A stretch of DNA of 46,471 bases from a virus. Shown here one piece after another: positions 2,211 to 46,471 of this stretch. The translations under genes were made by a program, and so were the position numbers. Every line of letters starts with the position of its first letter. Position 1 is the first letter of the stretch. The stretch is from IMG/VR virus record IMGVR_UViG_3300026522_000008; one strand, written 5' to 3'. The notes under the pieces are model-generated. The model did not search any database, was not told the origin of the DNA, and saw nothing but the letters and a program-made list of their open reading frames with translations.

Positions 2211-2294
2211 CGCTGCCTTTATTTCTAAAGGGCTTCCACCTGTATGCATCTTCTATTTTAACGCGGAATGCCCTTTTTTACAAGGAGGGTATTT

Positions 2295-3869
2295 ATGCGC
2301 TTTTTTTGTTATGGCAGGAAATCTGTTTATTCCGATCACTCGGATTCTGTCGATAATCAGGAGGGAATGTGCCGGGATTATGTTTCCTCCCGCTTTCCTG
2401 GTGAGGTCGACTCTTTTATCTGCTTCCAGGACGAGGATTTCTCTGGCGCGAACACGGACCGTCCGGGCCTTAAAGAAATGATGCGGCGGGTTCGGGCGCG
2501 GGAGTGCGACGCCCTGGTTGTCTACCAGCTGGATCGGCTTTCTCGGAACGTCCGGGATTTTTCCAATCTGTACGCGGAGCTTGATTCGCTCTCGGTGAAA
2601 TTTATCTCATTGAAGGAAAACATCGACACCGCCACCCCGATCGGACGCGCGATGATGTACGTGACCGTGATTTTTGCTCAGATGGAGCGGGAGACGACGG
2701 CGGTTCGGGTCCTGGATAATATGCGCGGCCTGTCTAAAAAAGGATACTGGACCGGCGGGAATCCTCCAACCGGGTACGTCCGCCAGCGCGTCGTGGAAGA
2801 CGGGCGGAAGCACGTGATCATCGTTCCGGATCCGGACGGCGTCGCCTATGTCCGGAAGGTCTTCTCCGATTTCTTGTCGATGAACTGCTCCCTCCAGCAC
2901 ATGGAGACCGCTTATCGTGATGCCGGCGTTCGCACGATCACCGGGAAGTTCTTCTCGTCGACACAGCTTTATAAAATCCTCACGATGCCTTTTTGTGTCG
3001 AAGCGACGCCGGAGGTCTATGATTTTTATGCCGCGAAAGGCTGCCAGATGGATCCTGGCTCCCCGCGCTCTGCGTGGGACGGTTCCGTCGGTGTCATGAT
3101 CTACGGCCGGTCGACCGAACGGAACAAAAAGCACGAGCTCCAGCCTCCGTCAGAATGGATCGTCTCTCTCGGGCGGCAGGAGCCATTTATTCCAGCCTCG
3201 GAATGGCTGGAGGTTCAGTCTCGGTTTACCCATAATAAGTGCATCAAAGACTCGCGCTGGCCGGTTCCTCTTCTGAAGGGCGTGCTCCGCTGCGGGAAAT
3301 GCGGAACGCTCATGCAGGTCGCCAGGAAGGCCCGGGTTGATGGCTCCTGCAGTTCGTGGTATTACTGCCGGAAGCGGATGAGGGAGGGCGCGGATGTCTG
3401 TGACATGCGGCACATCAAATGCGAGATCCTGGACGACCGGGTTCTGGAGGTTTTCCGCGGCATCGCTGCGGATCCGGATCTGATTCAGAAATACGTTGAA
3501 AGATCCGAGCCTGCTGCCGGGCCGGATCTTGCTGCCATCAACCAGAAGATCGCGGCGCAGGAGCGGAAAATTGAAAAGCTCGCAGCCTCCCTCGCTCTGG
3601 CGGACGGATCCTCTGCGGCTCGGTACATCATCTCCGAGATGGAATCCCTGGACGCTGGTCTTTCCTCCCTTCGCCAGGAAGCCACGGCTGCCGAGGCTGC
3701 GGTCCGTGAAAAACGCGCGGCGGCTGCCTCCGCAAAGGAAAAAGCCGAAGAAATCCGGAGGCTTATTTCCGGTCTGGATGGTTTTACTCCCAAGGAGCGG
3801 AACGAGATCGTCCGCTCCGTCGTGAAATCCTGCGCCTGGGACGGGGAGACGCTTTTTCTTTCGCTCTAA
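2295..3869 (+). CDS. Large serine recombinase (phage integrase), 524 aa
   Basis: ATG at 2295 after AAGGAGGG. The N-terminal resolvase domain reads YGRKSVYSD...VVYQLDRLSRN...ENIDTATPIGRAMM. It is followed by a recombinase domain, a Cys-rich zinc ribbon (CGKCGTLM...YYC) and an Ala-rich coiled coil. Confidence 0.92.
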   Translation: MRFFCYGRKSVYSDHSDSVDNQEGMCRDYVSSRFPGEVDSFICFQDEDFSGANTDRPGLKEMMRRVRARECDALVVYQLDRLSRNVRDFSNLYAELDSLSVKFISLKENIDTATPIGRAMMYVTVIFAQMERETTAVRVLDNMRGLSKKGYWTGGNPPTGYVRQRVVEDGRKHVIIVPDPDGVAYVRKVFSDFLSMNCSLQHMETAYRDAGVRTITGKFFSSTQLYKILTMPFCVEATPEVYDFYAAKGCQMDPGSPRSAWDGSVGVMIYGRSTERNKKHELQPPSEWIVSLGRQEPFIPASEWLEVQSRFTHNKCIKDSRWPVPLLKGVLRCGKCGTLMQVARKARVDGSCSSWYYCRKRMREGADVCDMRHIKCEILDDRVLEVFRGIAADPDLIQKYVERSEPAAGPDLAAINQKIAAQERKIEKLAASLALADGSSAARYIISEMESLDAGLSSLRQEATAAEAAVREKRAAAASAKEKAEEIRRLISGLDGFTPKERNEIVRSVVKSCAWDGETLFLSL

Positions 3870-7603: not shown

Positions 7604-7752
7604 TGGGCTATCCTCTTTTCTACTTCTTCTAGCTTCTTTTCCTCTTCCTCGATGTCTGTGTACTGACGCAAGATCGCGATCAGCCTGCAAACCTGAGAGT
7701 GCAGGGTTGTGATGATCTCCGCCTGTTCCAGACAGAGGCTCTCATAAATCAT
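7600..7752 (-). CDS. Small 50-aa protein translationally coupled to the DGR RT
   Basis: ATG at 7752 in ATGA overlap with the RT stop (7749-7751). Sequence MIYESLCLEQAEIITTLHSQVCRLIAILRQYTDIEEEEKKLEEVEKRIAQ. Confidence 0.6.
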   Translation of the reverse strand: MIYESLCLEQAEIITTLHSQVCRLIAILRQYTDIEEEEKKLEEVEKRIAQ

Positions 7753-8852
7753 GCTGCTTCTCCTTCCTTTGGCTGCCTGGTCAGGACGAATCCTCCGAGG
7801 ACTTTGTCTCTCAAAGCGTCGCAGTCGCAATCCTCCAGGATCGCCTTGTAGCACATGTAAACCTCGCGGGCCTCTGAAATCGTGACGTCTCCGTTCCGGT
7901 AGTCGCTCTCGATCTTTACGAGGTACCGCTTCATGTGCTTCGCGCTGCTCTTTCGGATCGTCGTGTATCCAGGCCAGATCCTGTACCCGATGAACTCGAT
8001 TCCTTGCGAAACCGGACGGATGCAGGTCTTTTGGTTTAGATCAAGGTGCAGGTTCCCCTTCAGGAACGCGCGGATGCTTTCCTCCCATTCGTGCAGCTCT
8101 GCCTTGCTTTCAGAAAACGCCAGGCCGTCATCCATGTATCGGATGAATATCCGGATCCGGAGCTTCCTCTTGCAGAACTGATCGAGTTCGTTGAGGTAAA
8201 AATTCGCGAAGATCTGGCTCATCAGGTTCCCGATCGGCATCCCTACGTCGTAGAGCCGCTCCTCCATCGGGACCTCTCCGGGTTCTTTCCCTGGCGGAAG
8301 TCCGAAAGGCGTATGCTCGCAGTGAATGATGCCCGCCATCAGGTCGCAGAGCCTTGCGTCGCTGATTCTCTTCCTGAGAAGCGATTCCAGGATGTCGTGG
8401 TCGACGCGGTAAAAATATTTACTGATATCGAATTTCAGGTAGTAGAGTTTCTGGTTCTTTTGCTCTGCTCCGTCCAGCCAGTATCGGACGCGCTTCACAG
8501 CTTTTTGCGCTCCGCGCCCCGGGATGCATCCGTAGGTGTCGTCGATGTATCCCTGAACCAGCAGCGGGTGGATTTTTTGATAAATGCACCACTGAACGAT
8601 CCGGTGTTTGAAGGCGATCGACATGATCATCCTCTTCTTCGGCTCCCGAATGTAGAAGATGTGGTATTGGTCAACCGTGTACCTGCCGGAGTAGATTTCT
8701 TCCTGCAGCTCCTTCAGCTTCCGGTACGCGTCCAGGTTCCATCGCAGGACTTCCGGGTCGTAGCGTCTCCCTTTGCTCGCGTTCTTCAATGCTTCGAGCA
8801 TCGACTCCATCGAGAAGACCTCGTCAAAGGTCACCTTGATCTTGTTGCTCAT
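7749..8852 (-). CDS. DGR reverse transcriptase (367 aa from ATG 8852)
   Basis: PIGNLMSQ matches the DGR-clade (I/L)GxxxSQ motif. A YMDD catalytic box and FDISKYF (motif A-like) are also present. It lies downstream of TR. A TTG at 8942 would add 30 aa but lacks a correctly placed SD. Confidence 0.92.
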   Translation of the reverse strand: MSNKIKVTFDEVFSMESMLEALKNASKGRRYDPEVLRWNLDAYRKLKELQEEIYSGRYTVDQYHIFYIREPKKRMIMSIAFKHRIVQWCIYQKIHPLLVQGYIDDTYGCIPGRGAQKAVKRVRYWLDGAEQKNQKLYYLKFDISKYFYRVDHDILESLLRKRISDARLCDLMAGIIHCEHTPFGLPPGKEPGEVPMEERLYDVGMPIGNLMSQIFANFYLNELDQFCKRKLRIRIFIRYMDDGLAFSESKAELHEWEESIRAFLKGNLHLDLNQKTCIRPVSQGIEFIGYRIWPGYTTIRKSSAKHMKRYLVKIESDYRNGDVTISEAREVYMCYKAILEDCDCDALRDKVLGGFVLTRQPKEGEAA

Positions 8853-9111
8853 AAAAAAATAAAAAACACCGTGCGTCGCGGCTTTGTGCTCCTTCTCCCG
8901 GAGCGTACTCGCAGCTTCTTTTCCGCGGTTCACCTCCTTCAAAAATTCACGGCTGCCTCTGGTTTTGTTTGTCTCCGCCAGCGCGGCCTGCGGTACTATC
9001 GCCGCAGGTCTTTGTTTTTCGGCTTCGGTGCTTGACCGAGCCGTGGGAGCAGACTCCTTTATTCCCTATGCCGCGCGTCGTCCATGGACTTTCGCCTTCT
9101 GAATGGGAGTG
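8853..9111 (-). ncRNA. DGR spacer region between TR and RT (expected part of the DGR template/priming RNA)
   Basis: 259 nt with no credible ORF. It is GC-rich with hairpins, for example CCTGCGG-cgatagta-CCGCAGG on the minus strand (plus 8976-8997). The role is inferred by analogy with the BPP-1 Sp region. Confidence 0.5.
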
Positions 9112-9229
9112 AAGCGGAACGGAAGCCGAGGTTGTCGTTCGAGTTCGACCGCGGGTTGTTCAAGTTGACGTTGAAGACGCCCGCATTGCCGCCATTGTTC
9201 CAATTGCCACCGCAGTTCGCCACGCGCTT
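9112..9229 (-). repeat. DGR template repeat (TR)
   Basis: A 118-bp gap-free match to 9774-9891 at offset 662. It contains 27 coding-strand adenines, mostly in AAC codons (for example AAC GAC AAC). Confidence 0.93.
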
Positions 9230-9251
9230 CCCTACAGCCTGTTCCCGGTGT

Positions 9252-9695
9252 TTATTTCCTTTTCTTTAGATTTTTGTTTGCTTGTTGCTTCGGGTCTTCC
9301 GCCAGTTCCGGATAGACGTACTTGTAATAGCCGCCGATCAGCTTTCCAATCTCTTCGGATTGCCGGCTCCATTCTGCGAAATTCGAAGGCCCGCGCAGGC
9401 AGCCTGCGGTGAATGCCACCTGAATCAAATCGTGCATCGTGTGGTTTCTCATGTCGAGGTTCTTGAGCGCGCTCTTCTTTTGCCAGGAATACTGCAGCTC
9501 GTTCGCGTCGGCTACCATTTGGTGCATCAAGTTGGCCATAAAATCTCCGAGGAGTTTCTGATTTTTCACGCTCCAGCCACCTATCAGACCGAGGCCGTAA
9601 ACTTCCATATCCACGATTCTTTGTCGGATTGTGAAGTTTTGGTCTTCTTCCTCTTTTGATTCTATCGTCGGGTTCTTTTCTTCCGTCATGTACAT
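9252..9695 (-). CDS. avd: Accessory variability determinant (Avd-like four-helix-bundle protein)
   Basis: It sits between the target gene and TR. A helical protein of about 145 aa with a basic tail, ending EEIGKLIGGYYKY like the IGKMLGGWIK-type Avd motif. The start is ATG 9695 or, with better SD spacing, 9689. Confidence 0.75.
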   Translation of the reverse strand: MYMTEEKNPTIESKEEEDQNFTIRQRIVDMEVYGLGLIGGWSVKNQKLLGDFMANLMHQMVADANELQYSWQKKSALKNLDMRNHTMHDLIQVAFTAGCLRGPSNFAEWSRQSEEIGKLIGGYYKYVYPELAEDPKQQANKNLKKRK

Positions 9696-9714
9696 CTATC
9701 CTTCTCTGTCGGAT

Positions 9715-9739
9715 TGCGGCCGTGCTGCCGCAGGCCGCA
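9715..9739 (-). promoter_or_regulatory. GC-rich hairpin just 3-prime of VR (DGR target-recognition hairpin candidate)
   Basis: tgcggcc (9715-9721) and ggccgca (9733-9739) form a 7-bp stem with an 11-nt loop, about 20 nt past the target gene stop codon. Confidence 0.6.
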
Positions 9740-9759
9740 TCAGTTACTCAGTCGCCGGT

Positions 9760-10800
9760 TTACAGTTCGCAAAAAGCGGAACGGAAGCCGAGGGCGGCGC
9801 CCGAGTTCGACCGCGGGCCGCTCAAGCTGACGTTGAAGACGCCCGCACGGCCGCCATCGGACCAATTGCCACCGCAGTACGCCACGCGCTCGCCGCTCGT
9901 GTTCCAGCCGTGGTAATCGCCGCCATAATCGCCTCCGGCTTCTGCAGGGTAAAGGATCAGCTCTTTTGCGATCTCCGGTGCGGTCAGCCCGCTTGCGAGA
10001 GTCATTGCGCTGAAGCTCTCCCATCTTCCGGAATCGGTCGGGGTGACTGTCGTCGCCAGCTGGTTCGCGCTGTTCGAATACTTCAGGGTTCCGGAAGTTC
10101 CGGGCTCTACGAGGGAGCCATCTGAAGCGATAGCTTTCCAGCTTGTGCTCGCGGTTCCGAGGCTTGTTTCCTGCAGCATTGAATTGCAATAAGGGATAAT
10201 CTGGATTTCTCCGTCAACCAGACGGAGTCCTGCGTTCCACTCCCAGATGTTTCCATTCAAGTCTGCAATGCCGGCGCCGGTTCCATCATGGTTCCATGTC
10301 TCCGGTCCGGATCCGGTCGCGGTTCTTCTTTCCTTCTTTGCGGAGCTGTCGTAATAAGTGCCGACGCCATTTTCGAGCGGGTAGCTCGCGTCGGATCCGT
10401 AGTTGTTGTTGCCGTGCGGCATTGTTCCGTTTGCCCTGCAGAAAAGTGCAATTTCAGCCCAGAGGGCGAACGGGATAAGTCCCCAGCCTTTTCCTTTGGC
10501 TCTCGCGTACTGGACCGCCTGGTCGAAGTTTACGTATGTCGCCGGGTCTCTCATCGGCAGGGAGTAGCCTCTGCCTCCGTAGACGATGTCCTGGAACTTG
10601 TCGACGTACATCACGGATTTTTCAACTCCGTTTACGATGTGGCCGCTGTGGGTCTGGTCGCTTCCTCCGAAGAGTTCCTTATTGGTGTGCTTCGGAAATG
10701 CAACGACGACAGACGGGAGTCCTGCGTCATCAAGCAGGACGGTGTTCTTGCCTCCGGTCAAGGACTCGACCGCGAGCTTCATGTCATCAAAATTTGCCAT
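9760..10800 (-). CDS. DGR target: tail receptor-binding protein with C-terminal C-type-lectin/FGE-like variable domain (346 aa)
   Basis: AAAAGGAGG precedes ATG 10800. GIADLNGNIWEW and the C-terminal GGNWSDGGRAGVFNVSLSGPRSNSGAALGFRSAFCEL are typical of DGR variable proteins. VR occupies the last about 43 codons. Confidence 0.9.
   Translation of the reverse strand: MANFDDMKLAVESLTGGKNTVLLDDAGLPSVVVAFPKHTNKELFGGSDQTHSGHIVNGVEKSVMYVDKFQDIVYGGRGYSLPMRDPATYVNFDQAVQYARAKGKGWGLIPFALWAEIALFCRANGTMPHGNNNYGSDASYPLENGVGTYYDSSAKKERRTATGSGPETWNHDGTGAGIADLNGNIWEWNAGLRLVDGEIQIIPYCNSMLQETSLGTASTSWKAIASDGSLVEPGTSGTLKYSNSANQLATTVTPTDSGRWESFSAMTLASGLTAPEIAKELILYPAEAGGDYGGDYHGWNTSGERVAYCGGNWSDGGRAGVFNVSLSGPRSNSGAALGFRSAFCEL
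9774..9891 (-). repeat. DGR variable repeat (VR)
   Basis: It differs from TR at 16 positions, all TR adenines on the coding strand. The 3-prime 21 nt (9774-9794, CCTCGGCTTCCGTTCCGCTT-type GC-rich block) are identical to TR, giving an IMH-like end. Confidence 0.93.
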
Positions 10801-17334: not shown

Positions 17335-20300
17335 TTATGCGAATGCCCGACGGCCTTCCGTCCGCAGGTACTCGCGCATCATCTTCTTGAAGTCTTCCTG
17401 GCTCATCTTGTTCGCCTGGACCATGTCTTCCTTGGACGGGGCTCCGCCCTCGAAGCGATAGGTTGGACTGAATACAAAGGTTTCGCCTCCGGTCGACTGT
17501 TGTTTCTGGGTTCCGGCTCCGCCGCCAGCCATTCGGTTCACGGTGTCCGGGATAACGCTTGAGCTTGCGTTCTGATCGAACGTCGGGGTCTCAAGCACGG
17601 CGCTCTGCGATGCCTGCGCGGCTATCGGCTGAGCGAGGTATTTGCTTGCGCTGTTCTGAACCAGTCCGGTTTCGTTCTTCAAACCTTCCGCGAGGCCCAT
17701 GCCTGCGAACTGTCCGGATTGCATCAAAACCTTAGACGGCGAGTGAATTTTCAGCGCGGAGTTGACTGTCGATGCCACCTGGTTCGCGATGTTCCGGGCT
17801 TGCGCTATTGCGCTTGCTCCGGCGCTTGCGATTCCGGCTCTGAGTCCGTTCATCGCCTGAGAACCTGCCGAGAACATGGATCCGTAAAGTCCCGCGAATG
17901 CGGAGACCATTTGCGCCGCGGTGCTCCGGCATGCTGCCGTTGCCTGCGAGCCTCCGGATCTTATTGCTGCGACGAATGCGACCATAGCCGCCGTCACGGT
18001 TGCGTTCATCTGGGTCATTCCACTCTGAGTTGCCGTGTTCATCTGCGTCACGCCTTGCTGAGTTGCTGCCGTGCTCTGCGTCATGGCGTTCTGAATTGCA
18101 AGGACAAATTGCTGCATTGCCATCGCCGCGGCTGGTCCCATCTGGCCGAGCATTGCGACCGAAACAATCAACGATGCGGAAAGTGCCGCCATTCCGGCTG
18201 CCGCGGTGATCGTTGCTCCGGAGAATACCAGCATTGCCGTTGCCGCCATCGCAAGCGGAACTGCCGCCGCGGTCACATTTGCGGAGAACGGCAGGATTGC
18301 TGCCGCCAGCATGGTAAACGCTGCAGCCGCCGGTGTTGCTACTGCCGGCAGCCCTGTCAGTGCCATTTTCAGAAGTGCGATGCTTCCGCTTGTTAGAGTC
18401 AGGGCTCCGGAAAAAAGAGCGACCGCTGCCGCCAGCGCGGTGAATGCCGCCGCGCCTCCGAGAGTTGCAGCTGCAAGTGCCGCCATTCCGGCTGCCGTTG
18501 CTACGGCTACTGCCGCGAGCGGTGTTAAGGCCGCCGCAAGCGGTACGGCTCCGGCTGCGATGACAGCCATCTTTGCCGCGGTTCCTGCTGCTCCCGATGC
18601 GAGGGATTTCAGAGCCGATCCGGCCGCCTTGGCGCTTCCTTCAATCGTTACGACTGAGGCTGCGACAATTGCCGCTGCCGCTGCGAGCGGAACCATTCCG
18701 GCTGCCGCCGCTACGGTTCCGGCTGCGAGGACGACCATTGCTGCTCCAAGTGCGAGTGTTGGCGCTGCCGCTGCGAGGGAAGCTGCCGCGAACGGGATAA
18801 ATGCCGCGGTCAACATTGTCATCGGCGCTGCCGCTGTTATGGCTCCAGCTGAGAACATTCGGATTGCTGCGGAAAGCGCGAGAAGTGCCGCACTTCCTAC
18901 TGCCGCTCCGGCTGCGATCAGCGCCGTTGCCGCTGCGAGGATCGCTGCCGCCGCTCCGGCCGCTATGATTCCAGCCGCGGCTGCGAGTGCTCCGGCTGCG
19001 AGTGCAGCCATTGCCGCCGCTGCCGCGATAGCTCCTGCGCTTCCTACCGCTGCCATTGCTCCGAATGCGGTTATTGCCGCCCCGAGCGTCAAAAGCGCAG
19101 CCGCCGCGGAAGGTCCCGCGGAGCTGATCAGCGGAAGGCTTGACGCCATCAGGGTGATACCGGCACTTGCGAGCGCGACTCCAGCTCCGACCATTGTAAT
19201 CGCAGCTCCAAAGGCAAGCATCCCTGGCGTTGCCACCAGAAGTGCCGGTCCGAGCAGTGCAAAAACTCCGGCGAGTGCGGCGATGCCTACGGCCATTGCA
19301 GCCATGGCTACTTGCGCTCCGGTTCCGGCCTGTGAGAGCTGAATTGCCGAATTAGCAAGCAGGGCGAATCCTGCAGATGCCATCAGGATTGCAGCTCCGA
19401 ATGCGAGAAGCCCTGCAGCTCCAGCTGTGAGCGCCGGTCCCAATGCTCCGGCTACTGCAAGGAGTGCGATCATTCCGCCTTCCATTAATGCGAGCGCTGC
19501 AAATGCAGCAGGCCCAGCTGCCGCTACCTGTGTTGCCGCCATAGCCATGAGGCTCATGCCTCCAGCCGCCATCAATACGGCGCCTCCGAAGGCGAGAAGT
19601 CCTGTCGCTCCGGCTGTGAGTTGTGGTCCGAGCGCTCCGGCGATTGCCATAAGCGCTGCGATTCCTCCGGTCATCAACGCAAGCGAACCGACCGCGAGTG
19701 GTCCGGCATTTGCTAACTGAATAGCCGCGAGGGTCATTAATGCCATGCCTCCGGCCGCCATCAGGATTGCTCCGCCCAATGCCAGGAGTCCGGTTGCGGA
19801 TCCTTGGACTGTCGGGGCGAGTTGTGCGATGACCGCCATGAATGCCGCGAGCCCGATTCCGAGTCCGACCAGCGCGATTTGTGCCTGCGGTCCCGCCTTG
19901 GCGATATCCTTTGCCGCCTGGACGAGGATCCATGCTCCAGCTGCAGCCAGTGCAAGTCCTCCACCGAATCCGAGCGCGTTCTTTGCTGCCGCACTCATCG
20001 CTGTAGATGCCTGGGATGTCGGTGCGGCTACTCCTTTTGCCTTGCTGACAAGATTTCCGATAGCTCCGCCGACTTTTCCGAACACTCCGACGATGCTTCC
20101 GGCAATTTTGAAAAGTCGCCCGACGATTAAGAGAACCGGTCCGGCTGCCGCGGCCATCATCACCCATTTGACGATGTTTTTCTGCATCGCCGGGTCGAGG
20201 CCGTTGAATTTATCAATGAGCCCGGTGATCTTGTCTACGAAAGGCTGTAAAACTTCGCCCACAATTCCGCCGACGTTGTATTTCAAAACGTCGAAGGAAG

Positions 20301-21354
20301 AGCTTAATTTTTCAAGCGATCCACCCATTCCGGACATGAGGGCGTCCGCCATGCTCTGCGAAGCTCCAGCTGCGTCGTTCAGCGACGCACTGTACTTTTG
20401 TACTTGCTCCGGGCTCGCATTGATCAGTGCCATCCACTTTTCCATCTGGTTTTTTCCGAAGATTGCGGATGCTGCCTGCAGCTGTTCTTCCTGCGTCAAA
20501 CCTGCGAATGCATTGTGCAGCTGTTCCTGGACGTTGACCATGCTCTTCATGGTTCCGTCCGCGTTGAAAATGTTCAGCCCGAGCTTTTTCATCCACACGG
20601 CTCCGTCTTTTGCCGGGGACGCCAGTCTTGCGAGTCCGGTCTTCAGGGCTGTAGCTCCTTCGGATCCGCTGATTCCCGCGTCGCCCAGAACATCGGTAAT
20701 CGTTGCGAGGTCTTGCATGTTCCATCCGACCTTTGCGACGATTGGTCCCGCGGTTGCCATTGCTTCGAACAAGTCCGATGTGGTCGTGTTCGCCTGAGCC
20801 TGCGCCTTTGCCAGAATGTCTGCAGCTGTCGTTGCATAGTCAGAATTCTTACCGAACATTTTCAGCGCGTTTCCGAGTCCACTGGTTACTTCCGACAGGT
20901 CTGTTTCGGTTCCGGCTGCAAGGTTTAAGGCTGGAGTGATCATGTTTCCTGCTTCGGCCGCGGTGAAACCTTGGCGGGCGAAGTTCAGGGTGGCGTCAGC
21001 TGCGTCCTGCATTCCGAATACGGAATTGGCAGCGGCTGTCTTGAGCGATGCGGCCAGCTTTGCCGCTTCTTCGTCCGTGGATCCCATTGTTGCCTGAACG
21101 AGTCGCAGGGTTTTGTCCACGTCTCCGAATTCCTTCACGCTGGTTCCGGCGAGGCCGACGATCGGCATCGTGACTCCGGCCGTGAGGCTGGTTCCTACTG
21201 TCGTGAGGGTATTTCCGATGGTGGTTAATCCCTGCGAGATCGACTGGCTTTTGCTTAATCCCTGTAGCTGCTTCTGCGCTCCGGAAATGGCGGAAGAGAG
21301 GGATTTATCAAGTTGTCCGGCGATCTTTATCGCGATTTCATATTCACTTGCCAT
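17335..21354 (-). CDS. Tail tape measure protein (1339 aa) with long uncharged Ala/Gly/Leu/Met repeat core
   Basis: It is the largest gene and lies after the chaperone pair. The N-terminal TP901-type TMP domain reads NFARQGFTAAEAGNMITPALNLAAGT. The central part holds at least 4 tandem units of about 63 aa. Confidence 0.92.
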   Translation of the reverse strand: MASEYEIAIKIAGQLDKSLSSAISGAQKQLQGLSKSQSISQGLTTIGNTLTTVGTSLTAGVTMPIVGLAGTSVKEFGDVDKTLRLVQATMGSTDEEAAKLAASLKTAAANSVFGMQDAADATLNFARQGFTAAEAGNMITPALNLAAGTETDLSEVTSGLGNALKMFGKNSDYATTAADILAKAQAQANTTTSDLFEAMATAGPIVAKVGWNMQDLATITDVLGDAGISGSEGATALKTGLARLASPAKDGAVWMKKLGLNIFNADGTMKSMVNVQEQLHNAFAGLTQEEQLQAASAIFGKNQMEKWMALINASPEQVQKYSASLNDAAGASQSMADALMSGMGGSLEKLSSSFDVLKYNVGGIVGEVLQPFVDKITGLIDKFNGLDPAMQKNIVKWVMMAAAAGPVLLIVGRLFKIAGSIVGVFGKVGGAIGNLVSKAKGVAAPTSQASTAMSAAAKNALGFGGGLALAAAGAWILVQAAKDIAKAGPQAQIALVGLGIGLAAFMAVIAQLAPTVQGSATGLLALGGAILMAAGGMALMTLAAIQLANAGPLAVGSLALMTGGIAALMAIAGALGPQLTAGATGLLAFGGAVLMAAGGMSLMAMAATQVAAAGPAAFAALALMEGGMIALLAVAGALGPALTAGAAGLLAFGAAILMASAGFALLANSAIQLSQAGTGAQVAMAAMAVGIAALAGVFALLGPALLVATPGMLAFGAAITMVGAGVALASAGITLMASSLPLISSAGPSAAAALLTLGAAITAFGAMAAVGSAGAIAAAAAMAALAAGALAAAAGIIAAGAAAAILAAATALIAAGAAVGSAALLALSAAIRMFSAGAITAAAPMTMLTAAFIPFAAASLAAAAPTLALGAAMVVLAAGTVAAAAGMVPLAAAAAIVAASVVTIEGSAKAAGSALKSLASGAAGTAAKMAVIAAGAVPLAAALTPLAAVAVATAAGMAALAAATLGGAAAFTALAAAVALFSGALTLTSGSIALLKMALTGLPAVATPAAAAFTMLAAAILPFSANVTAAAVPLAMAATAMLVFSGATITAAAGMAALSASLIVSVAMLGQMGPAAAMAMQQFVLAIQNAMTQSTAATQQGVTQMNTATQSGMTQMNATVTAAMVAFVAAIRSGGSQATAACRSTAAQMVSAFAGLYGSMFSAGSQAMNGLRAGIASAGASAIAQARNIANQVASTVNSALKIHSPSKVLMQSGQFAGMGLAEGLKNETGLVQNSASKYLAQPIAAQASQSAVLETPTFDQNASSSVIPDTVNRMAGGGAGTQKQQSTGGETFVFSPTYRFEGGAPSKEDMVQANKMSQEDFKKMMREYLRTEGRRAFA

Positions 21355-30332: not shown

Positions 30333-32189
30333 TTATAGCCAGTTTTCGTTCTGCTTTATCCAGTTTTCTTCGGGAGTGTATTCTTCCGATTGCTCCGACC
30401 TCTTGGTTTTTTCTTTGATCGCTTCTTCATCCTGAAGATGGAAGGAGCGGACGCCCAGGGTATCGGCCGCCGCCAGCGAGTAGACCTCTGCGTCGAGGTA
30501 GTGGTTATCGATGTGGCTCCGTTTCGGTACCCATCTCTGAACCACTCGCCCTCCGGCGGTTTTGACGTTGACCTTGTGCTCCGCTGTGACCTGTTCTGCG
30601 TATTCCCGGTCGCAGCCGGCATAAACCATCCAGCTGCCGCGGCCGTTTGGTTTCTTCATCCTTCCGGCGATCATGTCTTTGTACTTATCACCGTCTACGA
30701 GAACGAGGTTCATTCCGTAGGCTTGCGATCCGGGCTTATTGATTTTCGACAGTTTGAAGTGCGAGAGCATCGGGTTGCTCACGCCCTTGGTCGGGAGCGC
30801 CCATTCCGCGTTCAATGCGCAGAAGTCATAGGTGGCGTCTGCGTCGTATCCGGAATCGACCAGGCAGAGATTTACGACCATTTGCTCTCCGTCTTCTCTG
30901 AAGTACGGGGTGTTCATGATCCTCTCGATGTCCTGGAAAGATAACGCTTGTCCGTGCGCAATGTTCTGACTGGTTATGTAGCTGCCCCACGCTCGAATGG
31001 TCCAGTAGAGGCTGGTTTGCTGAACGTCCACGCCTCCGGTCAGGATCTTCGCCCAGTTCGGGACGGTGAATTCCGGCCGCTCCGTCTGTCTCTGAAGAAC
31101 AACATCCGCGCTGGTTTTCAGCGTGGTGTCTTCCCACGGCTCTGCGAGCCATGAGTTCGTGAAGTTCTGGAGCTTCTCCGGGTCATCCTTTGAATCCAGG
31201 AATTCCTTCACGATTTCTGAAAAACGGACGAACGGGCTATAAAGCGTATTCATCCAGTAACCGATCTTCCGGTTGTACTTTCCGTTCTGCCGGACGGGTT
31301 GCCATTCGCCCTGCCGGAGCATTTGGTCTTTATCCTGATCGGTGATCTTCTCTCCGCAGTTCTGGCAAATGTAGACCGCCATGTCGGCACGATCCTGATT
31401 CGACAGGTCGTCTCCGGATGGGAATTTCAGCTGTTTAAATTTCAGCTCGATCATCTCTCCGCAGTGTGGGCACGGCACGAAGAAGTGTTTCTCCACGTCG
31501 CAGTCCATCAAGGCTTTCCAAATCTGTCCGGTGGAAAGCGTCGGAGTTGACGTCATGTAGATCTTCCGGTTTCTGAAGGTCTTCGTTCTTTCCTTTGCCA
31601 GGGAGATTGGGTCCGACTCCTTTTTGCTGCTTCCTGGGTACTTGTCCACCTCATCTAAAAAGAGGTATTTAATGGCTTTTGATGCCAGGGAGCTCGGGCT
31701 GTTCGATCCGGCGAGGGTTAGGTACATTCCGTCGAACTGCATTTCCAACTTCGAGGATTCGGTTTCCTTGTAAAGTTTCAGGAGGCTCCGGTTCGCCTTG
31801 ATCATCGGCTCGATTCGGTTTTCGCTGATCGATTCTGTCAGTTTGTCTGTCGGGTAGACGATCATGGCAGGCGACGGGTCTTGCATAATCACGTAGCCCA
31901 GCATATTCTGGAGGGCTTCGGTTCCTCCGACCTGCGTCGGCTTGCAGAAGACGATTTCTTCCGTCTCGTAGTTGGTCAGCTCATCCATGATGTCGACGAG
32001 GTACGGGGTCTTGTCGTTTCTCCATGGTCCGGGAAGTGCGGAGGTCTTGGTGTCCAGCACTCGGTATTTCTCCGCCCATTCCGATACGGTGATGTCCTCC
32101 GGCGGTCTTAAAAGACGGAGGGCATCAGCCTGGTACTTCGTTAGCTGATACTTTCGTATCCTTATTCGTTTGTGTTTTAAGGGTTCCAT
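30333..32189 (-). CDS. terL: Terminase large subunit, lambda GpA family (618 aa)
   Basis: VSEWAEKYRVLDTKTSALPGPWRNDKTPYLVDIMD...CKPTQVGGTE (Walker A-like) is typical of Terminase_GpA. A zinc-ribbon-like CPHCGE...CQNCGE is also present. Confidence 0.92.
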   Translation of the reverse strand: MEPLKHKRIRIRKYQLTKYQADALRLLRPPEDITVSEWAEKYRVLDTKTSALPGPWRNDKTPYLVDIMDELTNYETEEIVFCKPTQVGGTEALQNMLGYVIMQDPSPAMIVYPTDKLTESISENRIEPMIKANRSLLKLYKETESSKLEMQFDGMYLTLAGSNSPSSLASKAIKYLFLDEVDKYPGSSKKESDPISLAKERTKTFRNRKIYMTSTPTLSTGQIWKALMDCDVEKHFFVPCPHCGEMIELKFKQLKFPSGDDLSNQDRADMAVYICQNCGEKITDQDKDQMLRQGEWQPVRQNGKYNRKIGYWMNTLYSPFVRFSEIVKEFLDSKDDPEKLQNFTNSWLAEPWEDTTLKTSADVVLQRQTERPEFTVPNWAKILTGGVDVQQTSLYWTIRAWGSYITSQNIAHGQALSFQDIERIMNTPYFREDGEQMVVNLCLVDSGYDADATYDFCALNAEWALPTKGVSNPMLSHFKLSKINKPGSQAYGMNLVLVDGDKYKDMIAGRMKKPNGRGSWMVYAGCDREYAEQVTAEHKVNVKTAGGRVVQRWVPKRSHIDNHYLDAEVYSLAAADTLGVRSFHLQDEEAIKEKTKRSEQSEEYTPEENWIKQNENWL

Positions 32190-32757
32190 CTCTCTTCACG
32201 TCCTTTGGTCCAACTTGGCCGGCGACCACGAACGATTCCAGGAGGTGATTCGTCTCAGCGGCGAGCTCCTTCTCGCATCGTCTGAGGTCGGCTGGCTCCA
32301 TCTGCCCTGAAAGCATCCCGGTCAGCCTTGCGGGGAGGCTCGTGGCGAATTTCTTAAAAACAATAAAAAACCGGGCGTAGTCCAGCTGCACCTCTTCGAT
32401 GCTTATGTACTGTCCGGTAGCTATTTCCGTCTTCAGCTTGTGCAGCTCTCCCTGGGATTCTTTCAGGGCGATGTCTGCCTGCATTTTTTTCTCGCGCAGT
32501 TCGATTTCTTTGTCGGTCCGGTGCGCTTTTCCGTAGGCCTTGTCCGATAGGTATTTGACGTATGCCTGAATGGTCGGGACGAGGTCGTACCTCCGGACGG
32601 TGTGGGTGTGGCCTTTTTCGTCGGTTTCCAGGACGGCGGTTGTTTTGATAACGCCATCCTGCGTCAGCTGCTGGACGCGCCGGGTACTTACTCCGAAAAG
32701 CTGCGCGATGACTTCGACGCGGTACATGCCTTTAGCTTCGGTTCCGCTACTGCTCAT
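32125..32757 (-). CDS. terS: Terminase small subunit, Nu1-like with MerR-type HTH (210 aa)
   Basis: IAQLFGVSTRRVQQLTQDGV forms the HTH. It is followed by YDL..TIQAYVKYL and a coiled coil, as in Nu1. The gene overlaps terL by 65 nt. Confidence 0.8.
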   Translation of the reverse strand: MSSSGTEAKGMYRVEVIAQLFGVSTRRVQQLTQDGVIKTTAVLETDEKGHTHTVRRYDLVPTIQAYVKYLSDKAYGKAHRTDKEIELREKKMQADIALKESQGELHKLKTEIATGQYISIEEVQLDYARFFIVFKKFATSLPARLTGMLSGQMEPADLRRCEKELAAETNHLLESFVVAGQVGPKDVKRDGTLKTQTNKDTKVSANEVPG

Positions 32758-32803: not shown

Positions 32804-34135
32804 TCATAGCGTCACCTCCAGCTTCTGGGCCTTCTCTGCCTTCCGGCCGGTGAAGTCTTCCCAGCGCTTCACAATGACGTCGCAGAACTTTTCGTCCAGC
32901 TCCATCAGGTAGGCGTTCCGGCCGAGCTGTTCCGCAGCCATCAGCGTGGATCCGGAACCTCCGAAAAGGTCCAGGACGTTCCAGTCGGGCTTGCTGCTAT
33001 TTTTCATCAGTCTGCCGACTAGCGAGATCGGTTTCATCGTCGGGTGCAGGTCGTTCTTTGTCGGTTTGTTTTCAAAAAGGACCGTGGTCCGGTTCTTGTA
33101 GCTGTCGCGGATCTGGTTGATGTATGTGATAAGGTCTTCCTTCTTCATACTCTGGAAGTCCAGCTCATCCTCGAGGAGGACGGTGTCCTGACTCCGATCG
33201 TCGATGAAGTAGTGCGCGGCTCCTTCTTTCCAGCCGTACAGGATCGGTTCGTGTCTCCACTGGTAATCCTGCCGGCCGAGGACAAAGCTATTCTTTTCCC
33301 AGATCAGGCATTCCGCCAGCTTGAATCCGGAATCGTTGAACGCCCGGCGGAAAGCGAGGCCTTCACTGTCTGCGTGGAAAACGTAGGCCGCGGCTCCCTC
33401 TCGCATCGCGTCAAACATGCATCCGAAGGCTTCATCTAGGAATTGCTCGAAGGTGTCCTCCGCCATGTTGTCGTTCTTGATTTCTCCGTCTTTGTAGTTC
33501 ACGTTGTACGGCGGGTCCGTGATCACGAGGTCCGCCTCGGCTCCCTGAAGAAGGGCGCTCACGTCGGTCGGGTCTGTCGAATCTCCGCACATCAGCCTGT
33601 GGTCTCCGAGGATCCAGATGTCTCCGCGTTTCGTGACGGGGTCCGTGATTTCATCGTAGGCTTCGTCCGCGTCGAAGTTGTCCTCTTCGGGTTCCACGGT
33701 GTCCAGCTTCAGGACGAGGTCCTCGACCTCCGAAGAAGTGAAGCCGGTTTTTGTCAGGTCGTAATCGTTCAGGTCAAGGTCCATGAGGGCTGCTTTCAGC
33801 TTTTCCTCATCCCAGTCACCGCTGATTTTGTTCAGGGCAATGTTCAGGGCTTTCTCGGTCTGCTTGTCTACGTCGGTCACGAGGACGCGAGCCTTTGTGT
33901 AGCCGAGGTCTTTTAATACCTTGTACCTCTGGTGACCTCCGATGATGGTTCCGTCCTTGTTGATTAAGATCAGCCCGACGTAGCCGTTGTCTTCAATGCT
34001 CCGCTTCAGAGCTTCGTAGTCCGGGTCGCCGGGCTGGAGGTCCTGCCGGGGATTGTATTCGGCTGGATGGATATCCGAAAGGCTGACGATCCTTGTGTCG
34101 GCGTCGGCTATCTTATCCTTGACGTCTTGCTGCAT
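32804..34135 (-). CDS. ParB-like nuclease domain fused to N6A/N4C DNA methyltransferase (443 aa)
   Basis: The N-terminus reads IVSLSDIHPAEYNPR...DGTIIGGHQRYKVL (ParB/Srx). It is followed by ITDPPYNVNY (motif IV) and LDLFGGSGSTLMAAEQLGRNAYLMELD (motif I). ATG 34135 is preferred over the upstream alternative start. Confidence 0.9.
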   Translation of the reverse strand: MQQDVKDKIADADTRIVSLSDIHPAEYNPRQDLQPGDPDYEALKRSIEDNGYVGLILINKDGTIIGGHQRYKVLKDLGYTKARVLVTDVDKQTEKALNIALNKISGDWDEEKLKAALMDLDLNDYDLTKTGFTSSEVEDLVLKLDTVEPEEDNFDADEAYDEITDPVTKRGDIWILGDHRLMCGDSTDPTDVSALLQGAEADLVITDPPYNVNYKDGEIKNDNMAEDTFEQFLDEAFGCMFDAMREGAAAYVFHADSEGLAFRRAFNDSGFKLAECLIWEKNSFVLGRQDYQWRHEPILYGWKEGAAHYFIDDRSQDTVLLEDELDFQSMKKEDLITYINQIRDSYKNRTTVLFENKPTKNDLHPTMKPISLVGRLMKNSSKPDWNVLDLFGGSGSTLMAAEQLGRNAYLMELDEKFCDVIVKRWEDFTGRKAEKAQKLEVTL

Positions 34136-34167
34136 GTTCCTCTTCCTTCCTTGTCGTTCAGAGCGCG

Positions 34168-34194
34168 TTCCGGCGGGTTCCGGAGGCCTTCCGG
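34168..34194 (-). promoter_or_regulatory. Three helically phased CCGGAA boxes upstream of the ParB-methyltransferase gene
   Basis: ttccgg occurs at 34168-34173, 34178-34183 and 34189-34194 (spacing 10 and 11 bp), 33-59 nt upstream of ATG 34135. The same hexamer forms the core of the 34805-34982 array. Confidence 0.5.
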
Positions 34195-34277
34195 GGCCCT
34201 GGCGTAACGAAACGCGATAAAAAATTGAGTTCAAATCCGGGAAAGCGTCGGGCTTTCCTCGCCCCGCTTGTGAAATA

Positions 34278-34317
34278 TGCACAAAGTAGTACCTACGAAA
34301 TGTGCAGGTTGCACAAA
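34278..34317 (-). promoter_or_regulatory. TTTGTGCA direct repeat plus TGTGCA/TGCACA hairpin (operator or promoter-region candidate)
   Basis: tgcacaaa occurs at 34278-34285 and 34310-34317, 32 bp apart. tgtgca-ggt-tgcaca at 34301-34315 is a 6-bp-stem palindrome. Confidence 0.4.
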
Positions 34318-34440
34318 TAAAAAGGGCCGGTCCGCAGCGAGGTTCGAACCAGTCCTTCTTCGTGTGTGTAGGTCTCAGTGAACGGGCTGTCTCGACCGCC
34401 TCGCTCCTGATCTCTTAGTCTTTCGACTCTATCATTGTAT

Positions 34441-34982
34441 CATGTGCGCATGGGACACGGTGGGACATCTTGCTCTTGTCTTCCGATGATGTCCTGTCTC
34501 CGAGGTCTCGCCTCGTGTGCTCGTGCCGCCCGGCCTAGTGCTCTCGCTCGCTCGCGCTCTCGCGTCCTTGCTCTTGAGCCCTTGCCTTGTGTGCCCTCAT
34601 GCCCTCGTGCCCGCGGGTCTGCCGCGCTGGCCGTGGTCTGTCTTGCTCTTGTCTCGTGCGTTCATGTTTCTTTCCTTCTCTCAAGCCCTCGGCAGCAGGC
34701 CTCCCTTGTCTGCCGCCCGTCTCTGCTATCCCGCTTTTGCCCCTTCTATTTTTGCCGGCCCTTTAAGGCCGCCCTTGCAGAGCTTCTTATATTTCTAACT
34801 TTTTGCCGCCCGTTTTCCGGTTTAATTTCCGGGTCTTATTCTCTGGTTTTTGTATCCCGGTTTTATTTTCTGGATTTATTTTCCGGGCTTTCGTCTCCGG
34901 TTTTTCTTTCCCTGAAATTTTCCGGCCGATTTTTTTCCGGCTTTATTTTTCCGGATAATTTTTTCGAGTTATTTTTTCGGGT
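34441..34982 (-). other. A-depleted (plus strand), purine-rich-sense non-coding region
   Basis: A hand count gives about 44 A in 540 nt on the plus strand, with about 5 A in 34501-34680. There is no credible ORF with an RBS. Short motif repeats occur: tcttgctcttgtc x2, tgccgcccg x3, tgggaca x2. Confidence 0.85.
34805..34982 (-). repeat. Array of about 13 degenerate 13-14-bp direct repeats (minus-strand consensus roughly A-CCGGAAAA-TAA)
   Basis: The GG of the (c/t)c(c/t)gg cores fall at about 34820, 34832, 34846, 34860, 34873, 34886, 34900, 34914, 34925, 34940, 34954, 34968 and 34980. Intervals are 11-15 bp, each followed by a T-tract on the plus strand. Confidence 0.8.
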
Positions 34983-35534
34983 TTATTCATCGGCCTCTGA
35001 ATTCCGGAGCTCTTCCTGCCGTCTCCGCTTTTCTCTTCGCATATCTGCGATGGCTGCGCATTGCTCGTAGTGCGGGGCTTCGTCGCGGATCCGAATCTGA
35101 ACCCATTCGTTTTCCAGTAAATAATCGAGCGCTGCGTTCTTCTTCCGCTGGCATTGTTTCGTGGAAAAATGGAGGATGTCCGCGATCTCTTCCCATCTCT
35201 TCCGGTCCAGATATCTCAGCTCGCAGACCTCTCGCTCTTCCGACTTCGTCGGGAGGATGTCCAGGATTTCTGTAATCGCGACAAGTGAATCTGCGATCTC
35301 TCGCTTTTGGTCGAGGAGTTTTTCTTCGACATCTGAAATCTTGAAAAGAATACCAGCAGCTCCGTCGCCTTCTCCGGATCCGTGCGGCATCGGGTCGTAT
35401 CCGAGCGCCTTGATTGGATCTCCTTTTTCTTCGTTCAGCCGGATCAGGCGAGCCTGCAGCTCTGCCTTCCGGCGCGTCGCTCTTACATATCTCGAGAGCA
35501 TCCAGTCTAAGATTTCGCGGCCCTCATAATCCAT
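34983..35534 (-). CDS. Sigma-70 region-4-like phage transcriptional regulator (DUF1492/late-activator-like, 183 aa)
   Basis: EREVCELRYLDRKRWEEIADILHFSTKQCQRKKNAALDYLL resembles sigma-70 region 4. GGAGG precedes ATG 35534. Confidence 0.7.
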   Translation of the reverse strand: MDYEGREILDWMLSRYVRATRRKAELQARLIRLNEEKGDPIKALGYDPMPHGSGEGDGAAGILFKISDVEEKLLDQKREIADSLVAITEILDILPTKSEEREVCELRYLDRKRWEEIADILHFSTKQCQRKKNAALDYLLENEWVQIRIRDEAPHYEQCAAIADMRREKRRRQEELRNSEADE

Positions 35535-36971: not shown

Positions 36972-37003
36972 TTAGTCCTCCTTTCCGATGGCTTTCTGGT
37001 TGC

Positions 37004-37316
37004 GTCCCCACTTTGTCCCCATTTTTAGTGGGTACACTTTTTTCCTCAGAAAAGGCTTATTTCCGGGCTTTTTCGGAGGTGTCCCCACTGTCCCCACTTT
37101 TTTTGGAATATACACTCACTTTTTTTAAGATTTTTTCCTTCGAGTGTTCCAGAGAAGGAAAAAAATTAAAAAACAGTTTAGCAATAATATTTAGTGGGTA
37201 CAGTGGGTACAAGTGGGTACAGATGTCTGAAAGCCTTGATTTTGCGGCATTTTCGCGTCCCCACTTTTGTCCCCACTTTTGTCCCCACTTTTCTCTGAAA
37301 CGTTAAAAGTGGGTAC
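37004..37316. repeat. Origin-of-replication iterons: GTCCCCAC(TTTT) and its near-complement AGTGGGTAC
   Basis: gtccccac occurs at 37004, 37081 and 37090, with gtccccat at 37015. The triple tandem gtccccactttt lies at 37257-37292. agtgggtac occurs at 37027, 37193, 37202, 37212 and 37308. The surrounding spacers are AT-rich. Confidence 0.8.
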
Positions 37317-46206: not shown

Positions 46207-46471
46207 TACCAGAATCCTCCTTCCTTGTGTTCACGGGCTTCGAGGATGTAGTAGTTCTCGGTTCGTGCCTTTTCCCAGCTTTTTGCTTTGAATGTAACTG
46301 TGATTCCGTATCCGCCATCGCCTCCGGTTTCCCATGGATCCGTGTAGGAGAATTCGTCTCCGTCATCTTCGTAGTTGGTGTGGAATTCATGGATGGCATC
46401 CATAACTCTTCCGAGTGCTGTCAGGTAGTCTTTGTAAATTCCGCAGCAGAAGATTCCATCGCCCTGGTCAT
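46206..46471 (-). CDS. C-terminal part of the junction-spanning hypothetical gene (same gene as 1..365)
   Basis: It stops at 46206 (TAATG overlap with the exonuclease start). The reading frame stays open to the window end and continues at base 365 via the repeat. Confidence 0.8.
   Translation of the reverse strand, partial: DQGDGIFCCGIYKDYLTALGRVMDAIHEFHTNYEDDGDEFSYTDPWETGGDGGYGITVTFKAKSWEKARTENYYILEAREHKEGGFW
46345..46471. repeat. Terminal direct repeat copy 2
   Basis: Identical to bases 1-127. Confidence 0.95.

Follow-up and report, generated by a model that had tools for sequence, protein, structure and literature searches.

Late-gene activators of the Ltr type in phages of Gram-positive bacteria include RinA, ArpU, LtrA, LtrB, and LtrC, of which the LtrA family carries a sigma70_r4 domain, and these activators bind 7-nt direct repeats situated just distal to their own genes (Quiles-Puchalt et al., 2013; PMC3753634). 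The intergenic region downstream of ltr also holds a terminator and the terS promoter, and in Staphylococcus aureus phages the terminator between ltr and the terS promoter has been shown experimentally (PMC3753634). Here we describe positions 34441 to 34982 of a viral DNA sequence of 46,471 nt (IMG/VR record IMGVR_UViG_3300026522_000008; hereafter the window, to which all coordinates refer), a stretch that an earlier, sequence-only reading had singled out as some 540 bp of non-coding DNA almost devoid of A on the plus strand. Our description follows the minus strand from 5' to 3', on which the region is poor in T. On balance, and with little more than even confidence, we favor the interpretation that this stretch is a weakly constrained non-coding spacer within an Ltr-type late-control region and that its poverty in A displays a strand asymmetry of the whole genome.

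The window has the Ltr-type layout: the gene of a candidate late activator is followed by a methyltransferase gene, terS, and terL, with the same synteny in the cultured Faecalibacterium phage FP_Epona, and phage-specific direct repeats are located between the activator gene and the candidate late promoter. On the minus strand the activator gene is succeeded by a tandem array, a T-poor block, and the direct repeats with the putative late promoter (together 34467-34426), and beyond these by a predicted structured leader with its terminator, a cos-like end, and the methyltransferase and terminase genes (Table 1). The activator candidate matches PHROG 36 "transcriptional regulator" (E 1e-16) and PHROG 248 "transcriptional activator" (E 9e-9) and is 30% identical to the protein annotated as "RNA polymerase sigma factor" in FP_Epona; its matches to Pfam Sigma70_r4_2 (E 0.0037, 17.3 bits, cut-off 25.7 bits) and to NCBIfam sigma70-ECF (E 1e-5) both fall below cut-off. 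The statement in the sequence-only reading that no standard feature class explains the region is consequently one we do not share, as the context fits an Ltr-type late-control region (PMC3753634) and the composition fits the genome-wide asymmetry described below.

Table 1. Features of the late-control region and of other parts of the window discussed in the text.
Feature	Coordinates	Strand	Basis or remark
Late-gene activator candidate, 183 aa, sigma-70 region-4-like	34983..35534	-	last gene of the early/replication cluster
Tandem array, ~13 units of 12-15 nt, consensus CCGGAAAA(T)AAA	34808..34981	-	Tandem Repeats Finder (TRF), repeat families D1-D3
Low-complexity core of almost only A, C, and G (T-poor block)	34469..34748	-	composition
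Two 7-nt direct repeats TGTCCCA, 10 nt apart, candidate operator	34451..34467	-	-35 zone of late promoter; read from sequence
Candidate extended -10 element TGATACAAT	34442-34434	-	conserved pattern
Second -10-like hexamer TAGAGT, 2 nt after the extended -10 element	34431-34426	-	conserved pattern
Leader RNA (~110 nt) with intrinsic terminator	34315..34425	-	predicted fold
Terminator hairpin	~34360-34324	-	predicted fold
T-run of terminator	34323-34315	-	predicted fold
cos-like genome-end region	34202..34296	-	conserved elements and contig starts
ParB-N / N6-adenine DNA methyltransferase	32804..34135	-	Pfam N6_N4_Mtase E 4e-32, ParB_N E 1e-4
terS	32125-32757	-	PHROG 57 terminase small subunit
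terL	30333-32189	-	after terS
Diversity-generating retroelement, FGE/Mtd-like target gene	9760-10800	-	
Diversity-generating retroelement, variable repeat	9774-9890	-	
Diversity-generating retroelement, bAvd-like gene	9252-9695	-	
Diversity-generating retroelement, template repeat	9112-9228	-	
Diversity-generating retroelement, reverse transcriptase	7749-8942	-	

The hand counts made in the sequence-only reading proved exact on recount: A accounts for 44 of 540 nt (8.1%) at 34441-34980 (44 of 542 at 34441-34982) and for 5 of 180 nt (2.8%) at 34501-34680. The 847-bp gap that it described between the two flanking genes is likewise correct (34136-34982). In 540-nt sliding windows across the genome, A averages 17.0% (standard deviation 3.1%) and reaches its minimum of 7.6% at 34490-34498, the next independent low being 11.5%. 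The flagged stretch is also the lowest in A with windows of 100, 180, and 300 nt, so that the composition check bore out its exceptional status at every size tried, and it contains the longest A-free run of the window (64 nt, at 34600). Relative to the genome-wide frequency of A its poverty is highly significant (P = 1.5e-9). The flagged interval is not a single element, as it spans the tandem array, the T-poor block, and the -35 zone of the candidate promoter. The block, which is the core of the stretch, has 13 T in 280 nt, 63% G+C, and 71% purine on the minus strand.

The sequence-only reading had also asserted that neighboring coding DNA shows no comparable skew, and this was mistaken. The four-fold degenerate sites of 20 minus-strand genes have, on that strand, 27.9% A, 32.2% C, 29.6% G, and only 10.2% T. 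Judged by this baseline, A is not significantly scarce over the 540 nt as a whole (P = 0.06) but only in the core (P = 1.4e-4 for the 5 in 180; for T, 13 of 280 in the core vs. 439 of 4303 at four-fold sites, Fisher P = 1.8e-3). A skew unexceptional relative to the rest of the genome, which had been named beforehand as the observation that would speak against the feature, is therefore what was found in part: the stretch matches unconstrained sites throughout the genome, but its core is still poorer in T.

Across the window as a whole, the plus strand has 17.0% A and 29.3% T, with a GC skew of only -0.02. The ratio of A to T at four-fold sites of the minus strand is approximately 3:1 in the window and approximately 6:1 in a group of related phages represented by the loci L003 and L006, whose methyltransferase and terL genes have 31.4% A, 31.7% C, 31.7% G, and 5.2% T at such sites and whose blocks have ~5% T. 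Genes on the opposite strand mirror the skew, as evidenced by the four-fold sites of a plus-strand recombinase gene (2268-3869; A 5.3%, T 22%) and of four plus-strand genes pooled (A 9.2%, T 22.4%), and the opposite-strand genes of FP_Epona mirror the skew of its main strand likewise. The skew is thus tied to the DNA strand, whichever way a gene is transcribed, which argues against selection on mRNA and for a DNA process linked to the strand; avoidance of U in mRNA, which we considered as a cause, is weakened by the same mirroring. Related phages that lack the block have 16-29% T at four-fold sites.

With respect to coding capacity, the plus strand of the stretch carries open reading frames (ORFs) of 211 aa (34435-35070) and 93 aa (34517-34798), and the poverty of stop codons that follows from the composition produces such long frames as artefacts, as the sequence-only reading had proposed. 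Neither long frame has a credible Pfam or PHROG match, the sole hit being to DUF3112 at a non-significant level (E 0.057, 13.3 bits vs. a 23.3-bit cut-off); the period-3 power is 0.3-0.9 in the block (0.39 in the core) compared to 5.6 for a coding control; and indels of 1 and 7 nt that break the frame separate near-identical relatives. The flagged stretch is non-coding. That nearly every frame is open could suggest a low-complexity protein, and a 22-codon ORF (MNARDKSKTDHGQRGRPAGTRA) with a Shine-Dalgarno-like GAAGGAAAG can be read by eye on the minus strand within the block (34665-34597); it is not conserved in L003, L006, or a third related locus, L035. The companion possibility, a long structured or sponge RNA, fares no better. 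The folding z-scores of the block on the two strands are -1.5 and -0.2 (15 of 200 shuffles were as stable as the fold at -1.5), the alifold covariation term is unfavorable (+3.42) with most consensus pairs broken in phages of the L003 type, and a search of the whole window against Rfam, together with a permissive local scan, returned no match at the gathering threshold (best E 0.23, far below threshold). No oligomer in the block exceeds what dinucleotide-preserving shuffles produce and there is no periodicity, which leaves no iteron or operator array inside it. The best oligomer, CAGGGCA, occurs 13 times vs. 4.9 expected and is absent from one of the five cores compared. A protein or a structured or sponge RNA is accordingly a reading that is already largely refuted, and we give it almost no credence.

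To place the block in a comparative setting, relatives were gathered by a search with the methyltransferase, which yielded 73 viral and 14 genome loci. At the same place, a block of 250-300 nt with only 2-6% T recurs in several groups, namely in L002 (the same phage), in the L003/L004/L011 group, in the L006/L008-L015/L046 group, in L035 and L062, and in prophages of Clostridium sp. OF03-18AA, Agathobacter sp., and Blautia ammoniilytica. Its length is 240-280 nt in the window, L003, L006, and L035, and ~110-150 nt in L020 and FP_Epona, the latter having the same gene order and an unannotated gap of 718 bp. More distant relatives have no such block; it is absent from L017, L021, and L077, in which the same promoter is directly adjoined by the activator gene or by a different gene. 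Among the blocks of L003, L006, L035, L020, and FP_Epona it is composition that is conserved and not sequence; the comparison with related phages that the sequence-only reading had proposed for this very distinction thus came out in favor of a conserved skew. The contrast is clearest between the L003 and L006 groups, whose blocks can barely be aligned even though their flanks are 95-100% identical (the genomes of these groups are mosaic elsewhere too), and all relatives keep the promoter, terminator, and cos elements. A search of GenBank phage DNA in near and distant modes gave no match, and a literature search for T- or U-free regions in phages turned up nothing relevant.

Six close relatives differ pairwise by 5.4% on average in the block, compared with 6.7% at four-fold sites and 0.44% at codon positions 1 and 2. 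The block therefore diverges at the synonymous rate and its sequence is essentially unconstrained. At four-fold sites the per-site polymorphism away from T is ~9-fold that toward T, predicting an equilibrium of ~10% T, and polymorphisms in the block give a similar estimate. In the interpretation that we favor, the block would have the composition of unconstrained sites of the minus strand (A, C, and G each ~30%, T 5-10%) with no coding constraint to oppose it, and slippage amplification of T-free oligomers probably sharpens the poverty in A. Its sequence drifts at the synonymous rate and, over longer times, the block is gained, resized, or lost; it would act at most as a passive spacer or insulator. 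The absence of T on one strand and of A on the other precludes -10 hexamers, U-tract terminators, ATG starts, and stop codons in either direction. Any early transcript that continued beyond the activator gene would therefore include the block as an untranslated, U-poor tail reaching to the leader terminator.

Several observations weigh against this interpretation. A block of 240-280 nt persists across lineages whose methyltransferases are only 63-78% identical, which is unusual for useless phage DNA. In four lineages T is 2-6 times scarcer in the core than at four-fold sites: the window (4.6 vs. 10.2%, P = 1.8e-3), L003 (1.2 vs. 10.2%, P = 1.7e-7), L006 (3.3 vs. 7.2%, P = 0.026), and L035 (2.5 vs. 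14.5%, P = 2.6e-9). Something beyond the background is at work, be it that T is selected against, that T-free units slip, or that the four-fold sites are still under some codon constraint. Among such units, CAAGAGCAAG recurs three times in the window, and a 21-nt segment of the CACACAGCCCACCCACACAG type was noted by eye to recur in the L003 core. Polymorphisms toward T also outnumber those away from T, by 12 to 5 in the block and 26 to 13 at four-fold sites (polarized by majority rule only), and the combined 38 vs. 18, for which the binomial P of ~0.01 is an estimate only, hints that T is held below its mutational equilibrium. The mirroring by opposite-strand genes might instead arise because lysogeny genes use codons as their host does. 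In a bolder version of events, one strand of this clade of gut phages, which bear a diversity-generating retroelement (DGR), may be losing adenine genome-wide through a strand-specific process that leaves 5-10% adenine at unconstrained sites in either gene orientation, with the spacer as its purest readout and selection additionally keeping the spacer free of T/U as an insulator between early and late genes that is proof against promoters, terminators, and ORFs. We regard this version as improbable. A link of the block to the retroelement itself was considered and rejected, because the block has no second (template) copy in the genome and its missing base is not on the strand that such a link would require; the retroelement mutates minus-strand adenines, and the minus strand of the block is A-rich and T-poor.

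The candidate promoter downstream of the block is conserved, the pattern TGnTAnnAT-NN-TAGCRT being retained in 11 otherwise diverged loci (the window, L003, L006, L035, L017, L020, L021, L036, L078, L077, and FP_Epona), which suggests that the extended -10 element has promoter activity. Direct repeats equivalent to the TGTCCCA pair are phage-specific, namely ATGCGAC/ATGCACC in L003, TGAGACA in L035, GAGACT in L017, and TGTACA in L036, and in L017 they come immediately after the activator stop codon, as described for Ltr-type phages (PMC3753634). The activator candidate is 43% identical to its L003 equivalent and the putative recognition helix differs between the two. As both the 7-mers and the recognition helix differ between the window and L003, while the array with its CCGG/A-tract units is shared, we infer that the promoter-proximal 7-mers are likelier than the array to be the operator of the activator. 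The predicted leader that follows folds with a minimum free energy of -45.9 kcal/mol (z = -3.56; 1 of 200 shuffles as stable), and its terminator segment, TGGTCTCTTTTGCTTT / CCGGCCCTTTTTATTT, is conserved in relatives. No tRNA or tmRNA was found; the leader sequence GGTTCGAACC belongs to the terminator hairpin.

The tandem array begins directly after the activator stop codon and has TRF periods of 13, 14, and 27. Eleven distinct unit starts, spaced 12-15 nt apart, were found by pattern and two more by eye (~34912 and ~34899). The motif CCGGAAAA occurs 12 times in the window vs. 3.6 expected, 5 of the 12 inside the array, and the copy number of the array differs among relatives through indels of 27 nt and longer. 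A CCGG/A-tract unit of the array type recurs once in inverted orientation (TCCGGGAAAG, 34236-34245), just interior to the cos-like left end, and a protein binding to both the array and this end, such as TerS or the ParB-methyltransferase, is conceivable from this arrangement.

The cos-like region comprises three invariant elements, GTAGGTACTAC (34296-34286), GGGCGAGGAAAGCCCG (34264-34249), and TTTCGTTACGC (34212-34202), which are kept in all relatives, FP_Epona included. Five independent IMG/VR contigs (L005, L007, L034, L038, and L039) start within 2 nt of GGGCGAGGAAGGCCCG, which in the window is the reverse complement of 34249-34264 and is flanked by GTAGGTACTAC and TTTCGTTACGC. Because five independent contigs begin there, a physical genome end is suggested, for which GGGCGAGG at window position ~34264 is the candidate, and the GGGCGAGGAAGGCCCG region is probably a cos site common to a wide set of Clostridia phages that includes FP_Epona. 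When viral contigs were scanned for exact occurrences of the 15-mer cos motif, most hits were due to chance, and the flanking cos elements were present in only 12 of 120 loci. The methyltransferase gene is the first gene after this end.

Several functional roles for the block have to be weighed against that of a passive spacer. The most substantial is that selection has made this U-free untranslated stretch a loading zone for Rho, one that would end the early (activator) transcript ahead of the late promoter and so replace the intrinsic terminator which staphylococcal phages have at this point (PMC3753634). No intrinsic terminator is predicted on the minus strand from 34983 to 34440, where one is impossible without T, and the T depletion exceeds that of four-fold sites. 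As in rut sites, the block RNA would be long, untranslated, weakly structured (the fold at z = -1.5 noted above), and situated downstream of a stop codon. The excess of C over G across ~80 untranslated nt that defines such sites is present in L003, L006, and L020, in which 78-nt windows reach C/G ratios of 1.75, 1.55, and 1.94, respectively (1.55-1.94, within the top 2% of their loci). However, the block of the window is G-rich, with a maximum C/G of 0.93 (25 C and 27 G per 78 nt) that equals the genome median, and L035 reaches only 1.12, so that the feature shared among relatives is the lack of U and not an excess of C. Its drift at the neutral rate and its absence from related phages that have the same promoter also argue against a selected zone, and we consider Rho loading unlikely. 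A role at the level of DNA in the function of the genome end (termination of packaging, binding of terminase or the ParB-methyltransferase, or protection of the entering end by a Chi-like cluster on the strand that ends 3') appears less likely again. The block is positioned 200-480 bp from the end that would be the last to be packaged and the first to be injected, its T-free strand ends 3' at the cos-like terminus, the inverted array-type unit lies beside that terminus, and the position of the block is conserved. Yet its sequence is not conserved, no oligomer stands out from the shuffles (CAGGGCA, the best, being missing from one core), and related phages with the same cos elements do without it. 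The suggestion in the sequence-only reading of a packaging or recognition region upstream of the terminase genes is thus right as to the general neighborhood, which is a control and packaging region, but the cos-like end itself lies ~200 bp downstream, outside the flagged coordinates.

Unusual DNA structures, which the sequence-only reading had likewise put forward, receive still less credit. An R-loop, triplex, or G-quadruplex element, involved for example in origin priming or transcriptional control, would be consistent with the U-poor, 71% purine RNA-like strand of the window and its GC skew of +0.23, and one relaxed G-quadruplex motif (GGG-N5-GGG-N5-GGG-N12-GGG) was seen by eye. The GC skew of the RNA-like strand is +0.17 in L035, but it is reversed in L003 (-0.08), L006 (-0.10), and L020 (-0.15), so that an R-loop is not consistently supported across relatives. 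A triplex is disfavored by a minus strand that is only 60-71% purine, in which the longest purine run (16 nt) is unexceptional for a genome whose top ten runs elsewhere are 16-23 nt, and by the absence of any homopurine mirror repeat from the block (the only mirror with arms of at least 8 nt, CGAGAGCGCGAGCGAGCGAGAGC, is not homopurine). A separate origin-like region elsewhere in the window further counts against a structure that primes replication, and we regard this class of explanations as very unlikely.

That origin-like region is non-coding, is located on the minus strand at 36990-37300, and adjoins the primase-helicase gene. Six copies of (AAA)GTGGGGAC occur in it vs. 0.97 expected, together with four to five copies of (T)GTACCCAC counted by eye. 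Since an iteron-rich region adjoins the primase-helicase gene, the block is unlikely to be a replication origin. Read as its reverse complement (GTCCCCAC), the first origin iteron exceeds the promoter-proximal repeat TGTCCCAC (34450-34467) in length by one base. In the related loci L036 (3100-3700) and L078 (2100-2650), the late promoter/cos module is preceded by a region that is rich in iterons (GAGTGGGAAC or AGTGGCAAC) and origin-like, with a mildly T-poor stretch of ~250 nt between the two and no activator gene there.

Elsewhere, positions 1-127 of the window are identical to 46345-46471, indicating a complete circular genome of ~46.3 kb, and nearly all genes are on the minus strand. The DGR is complete (7749-10800, minus strand), and all mismatches between the two copies of its 117-nt repeat are at template adenines. 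The longest ORF (1339 aa, 17335-21354, minus strand) presumably encodes the tape-measure protein and contains direct repeats of 44-86 nt at 18189-19791, with spacings that are multiples of 21, 42, and 189 nt.

The practical outcome of this analysis is a usable map of late control and cos for a phage group that includes Epona-like phages of the human gut, with an activator, candidate operator, promoter, terminated leader, and genome end. More generally, a striking local skew can be a by-product, and it is the genome-wide A/T asymmetry without GC skew, and not the 540-bp stretch, that retains our interest; such asymmetry in temperate phages of Lachnospiraceae and Faecalibacterium may merit study. 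Should selection prove to underlie the additional loss of T from the core, this would represent an unusual case of selection on composition, and not on sequence, in a regulatory spacer.

The strand asymmetry of bacterial chromosomes is far smaller than the A:T ratios of ~3:1 and 6:1 seen here. Compositional asymmetry associated with replication (GC/AT skew; e.g., Charneski et al., 2011, PMC3174206) resembles the asymmetry of this phage in that the A/T imbalance is tied to the strand, is visible at four-fold sites, and is mirrored in genes of opposite orientation, and differs in that this phage has almost no GC skew. In its layout the region shares with lambdoid late control (Q, pR', 6S RNA, and tR') a putative late promoter, a short terminated leader, transcription that would run across cos, and a second -10-like hexamer beside the -10 element, whereas its regulator is sigma-r4-like and not Q-like. 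Lambda is not known to have a comparable spacer separating Q from pR'. The closest likeness is to Ltr-type regions, with which the window shares a small candidate activator gene, with similarity to sigma region 4, that closes the early cluster and, as read from the sequence, phage-specific short direct repeats ahead of a late promoter that would drive the packaging genes. It departs from them by inserting a 13-unit A-tract array and a T-free block of ~280 bp before the candidate operator and promoter, by having a block in which no intrinsic terminator is possible, by placing a terminated leader and a cos-like end before the first late gene, and by having as that first gene a predicted ParB-methyltransferase and not terS.

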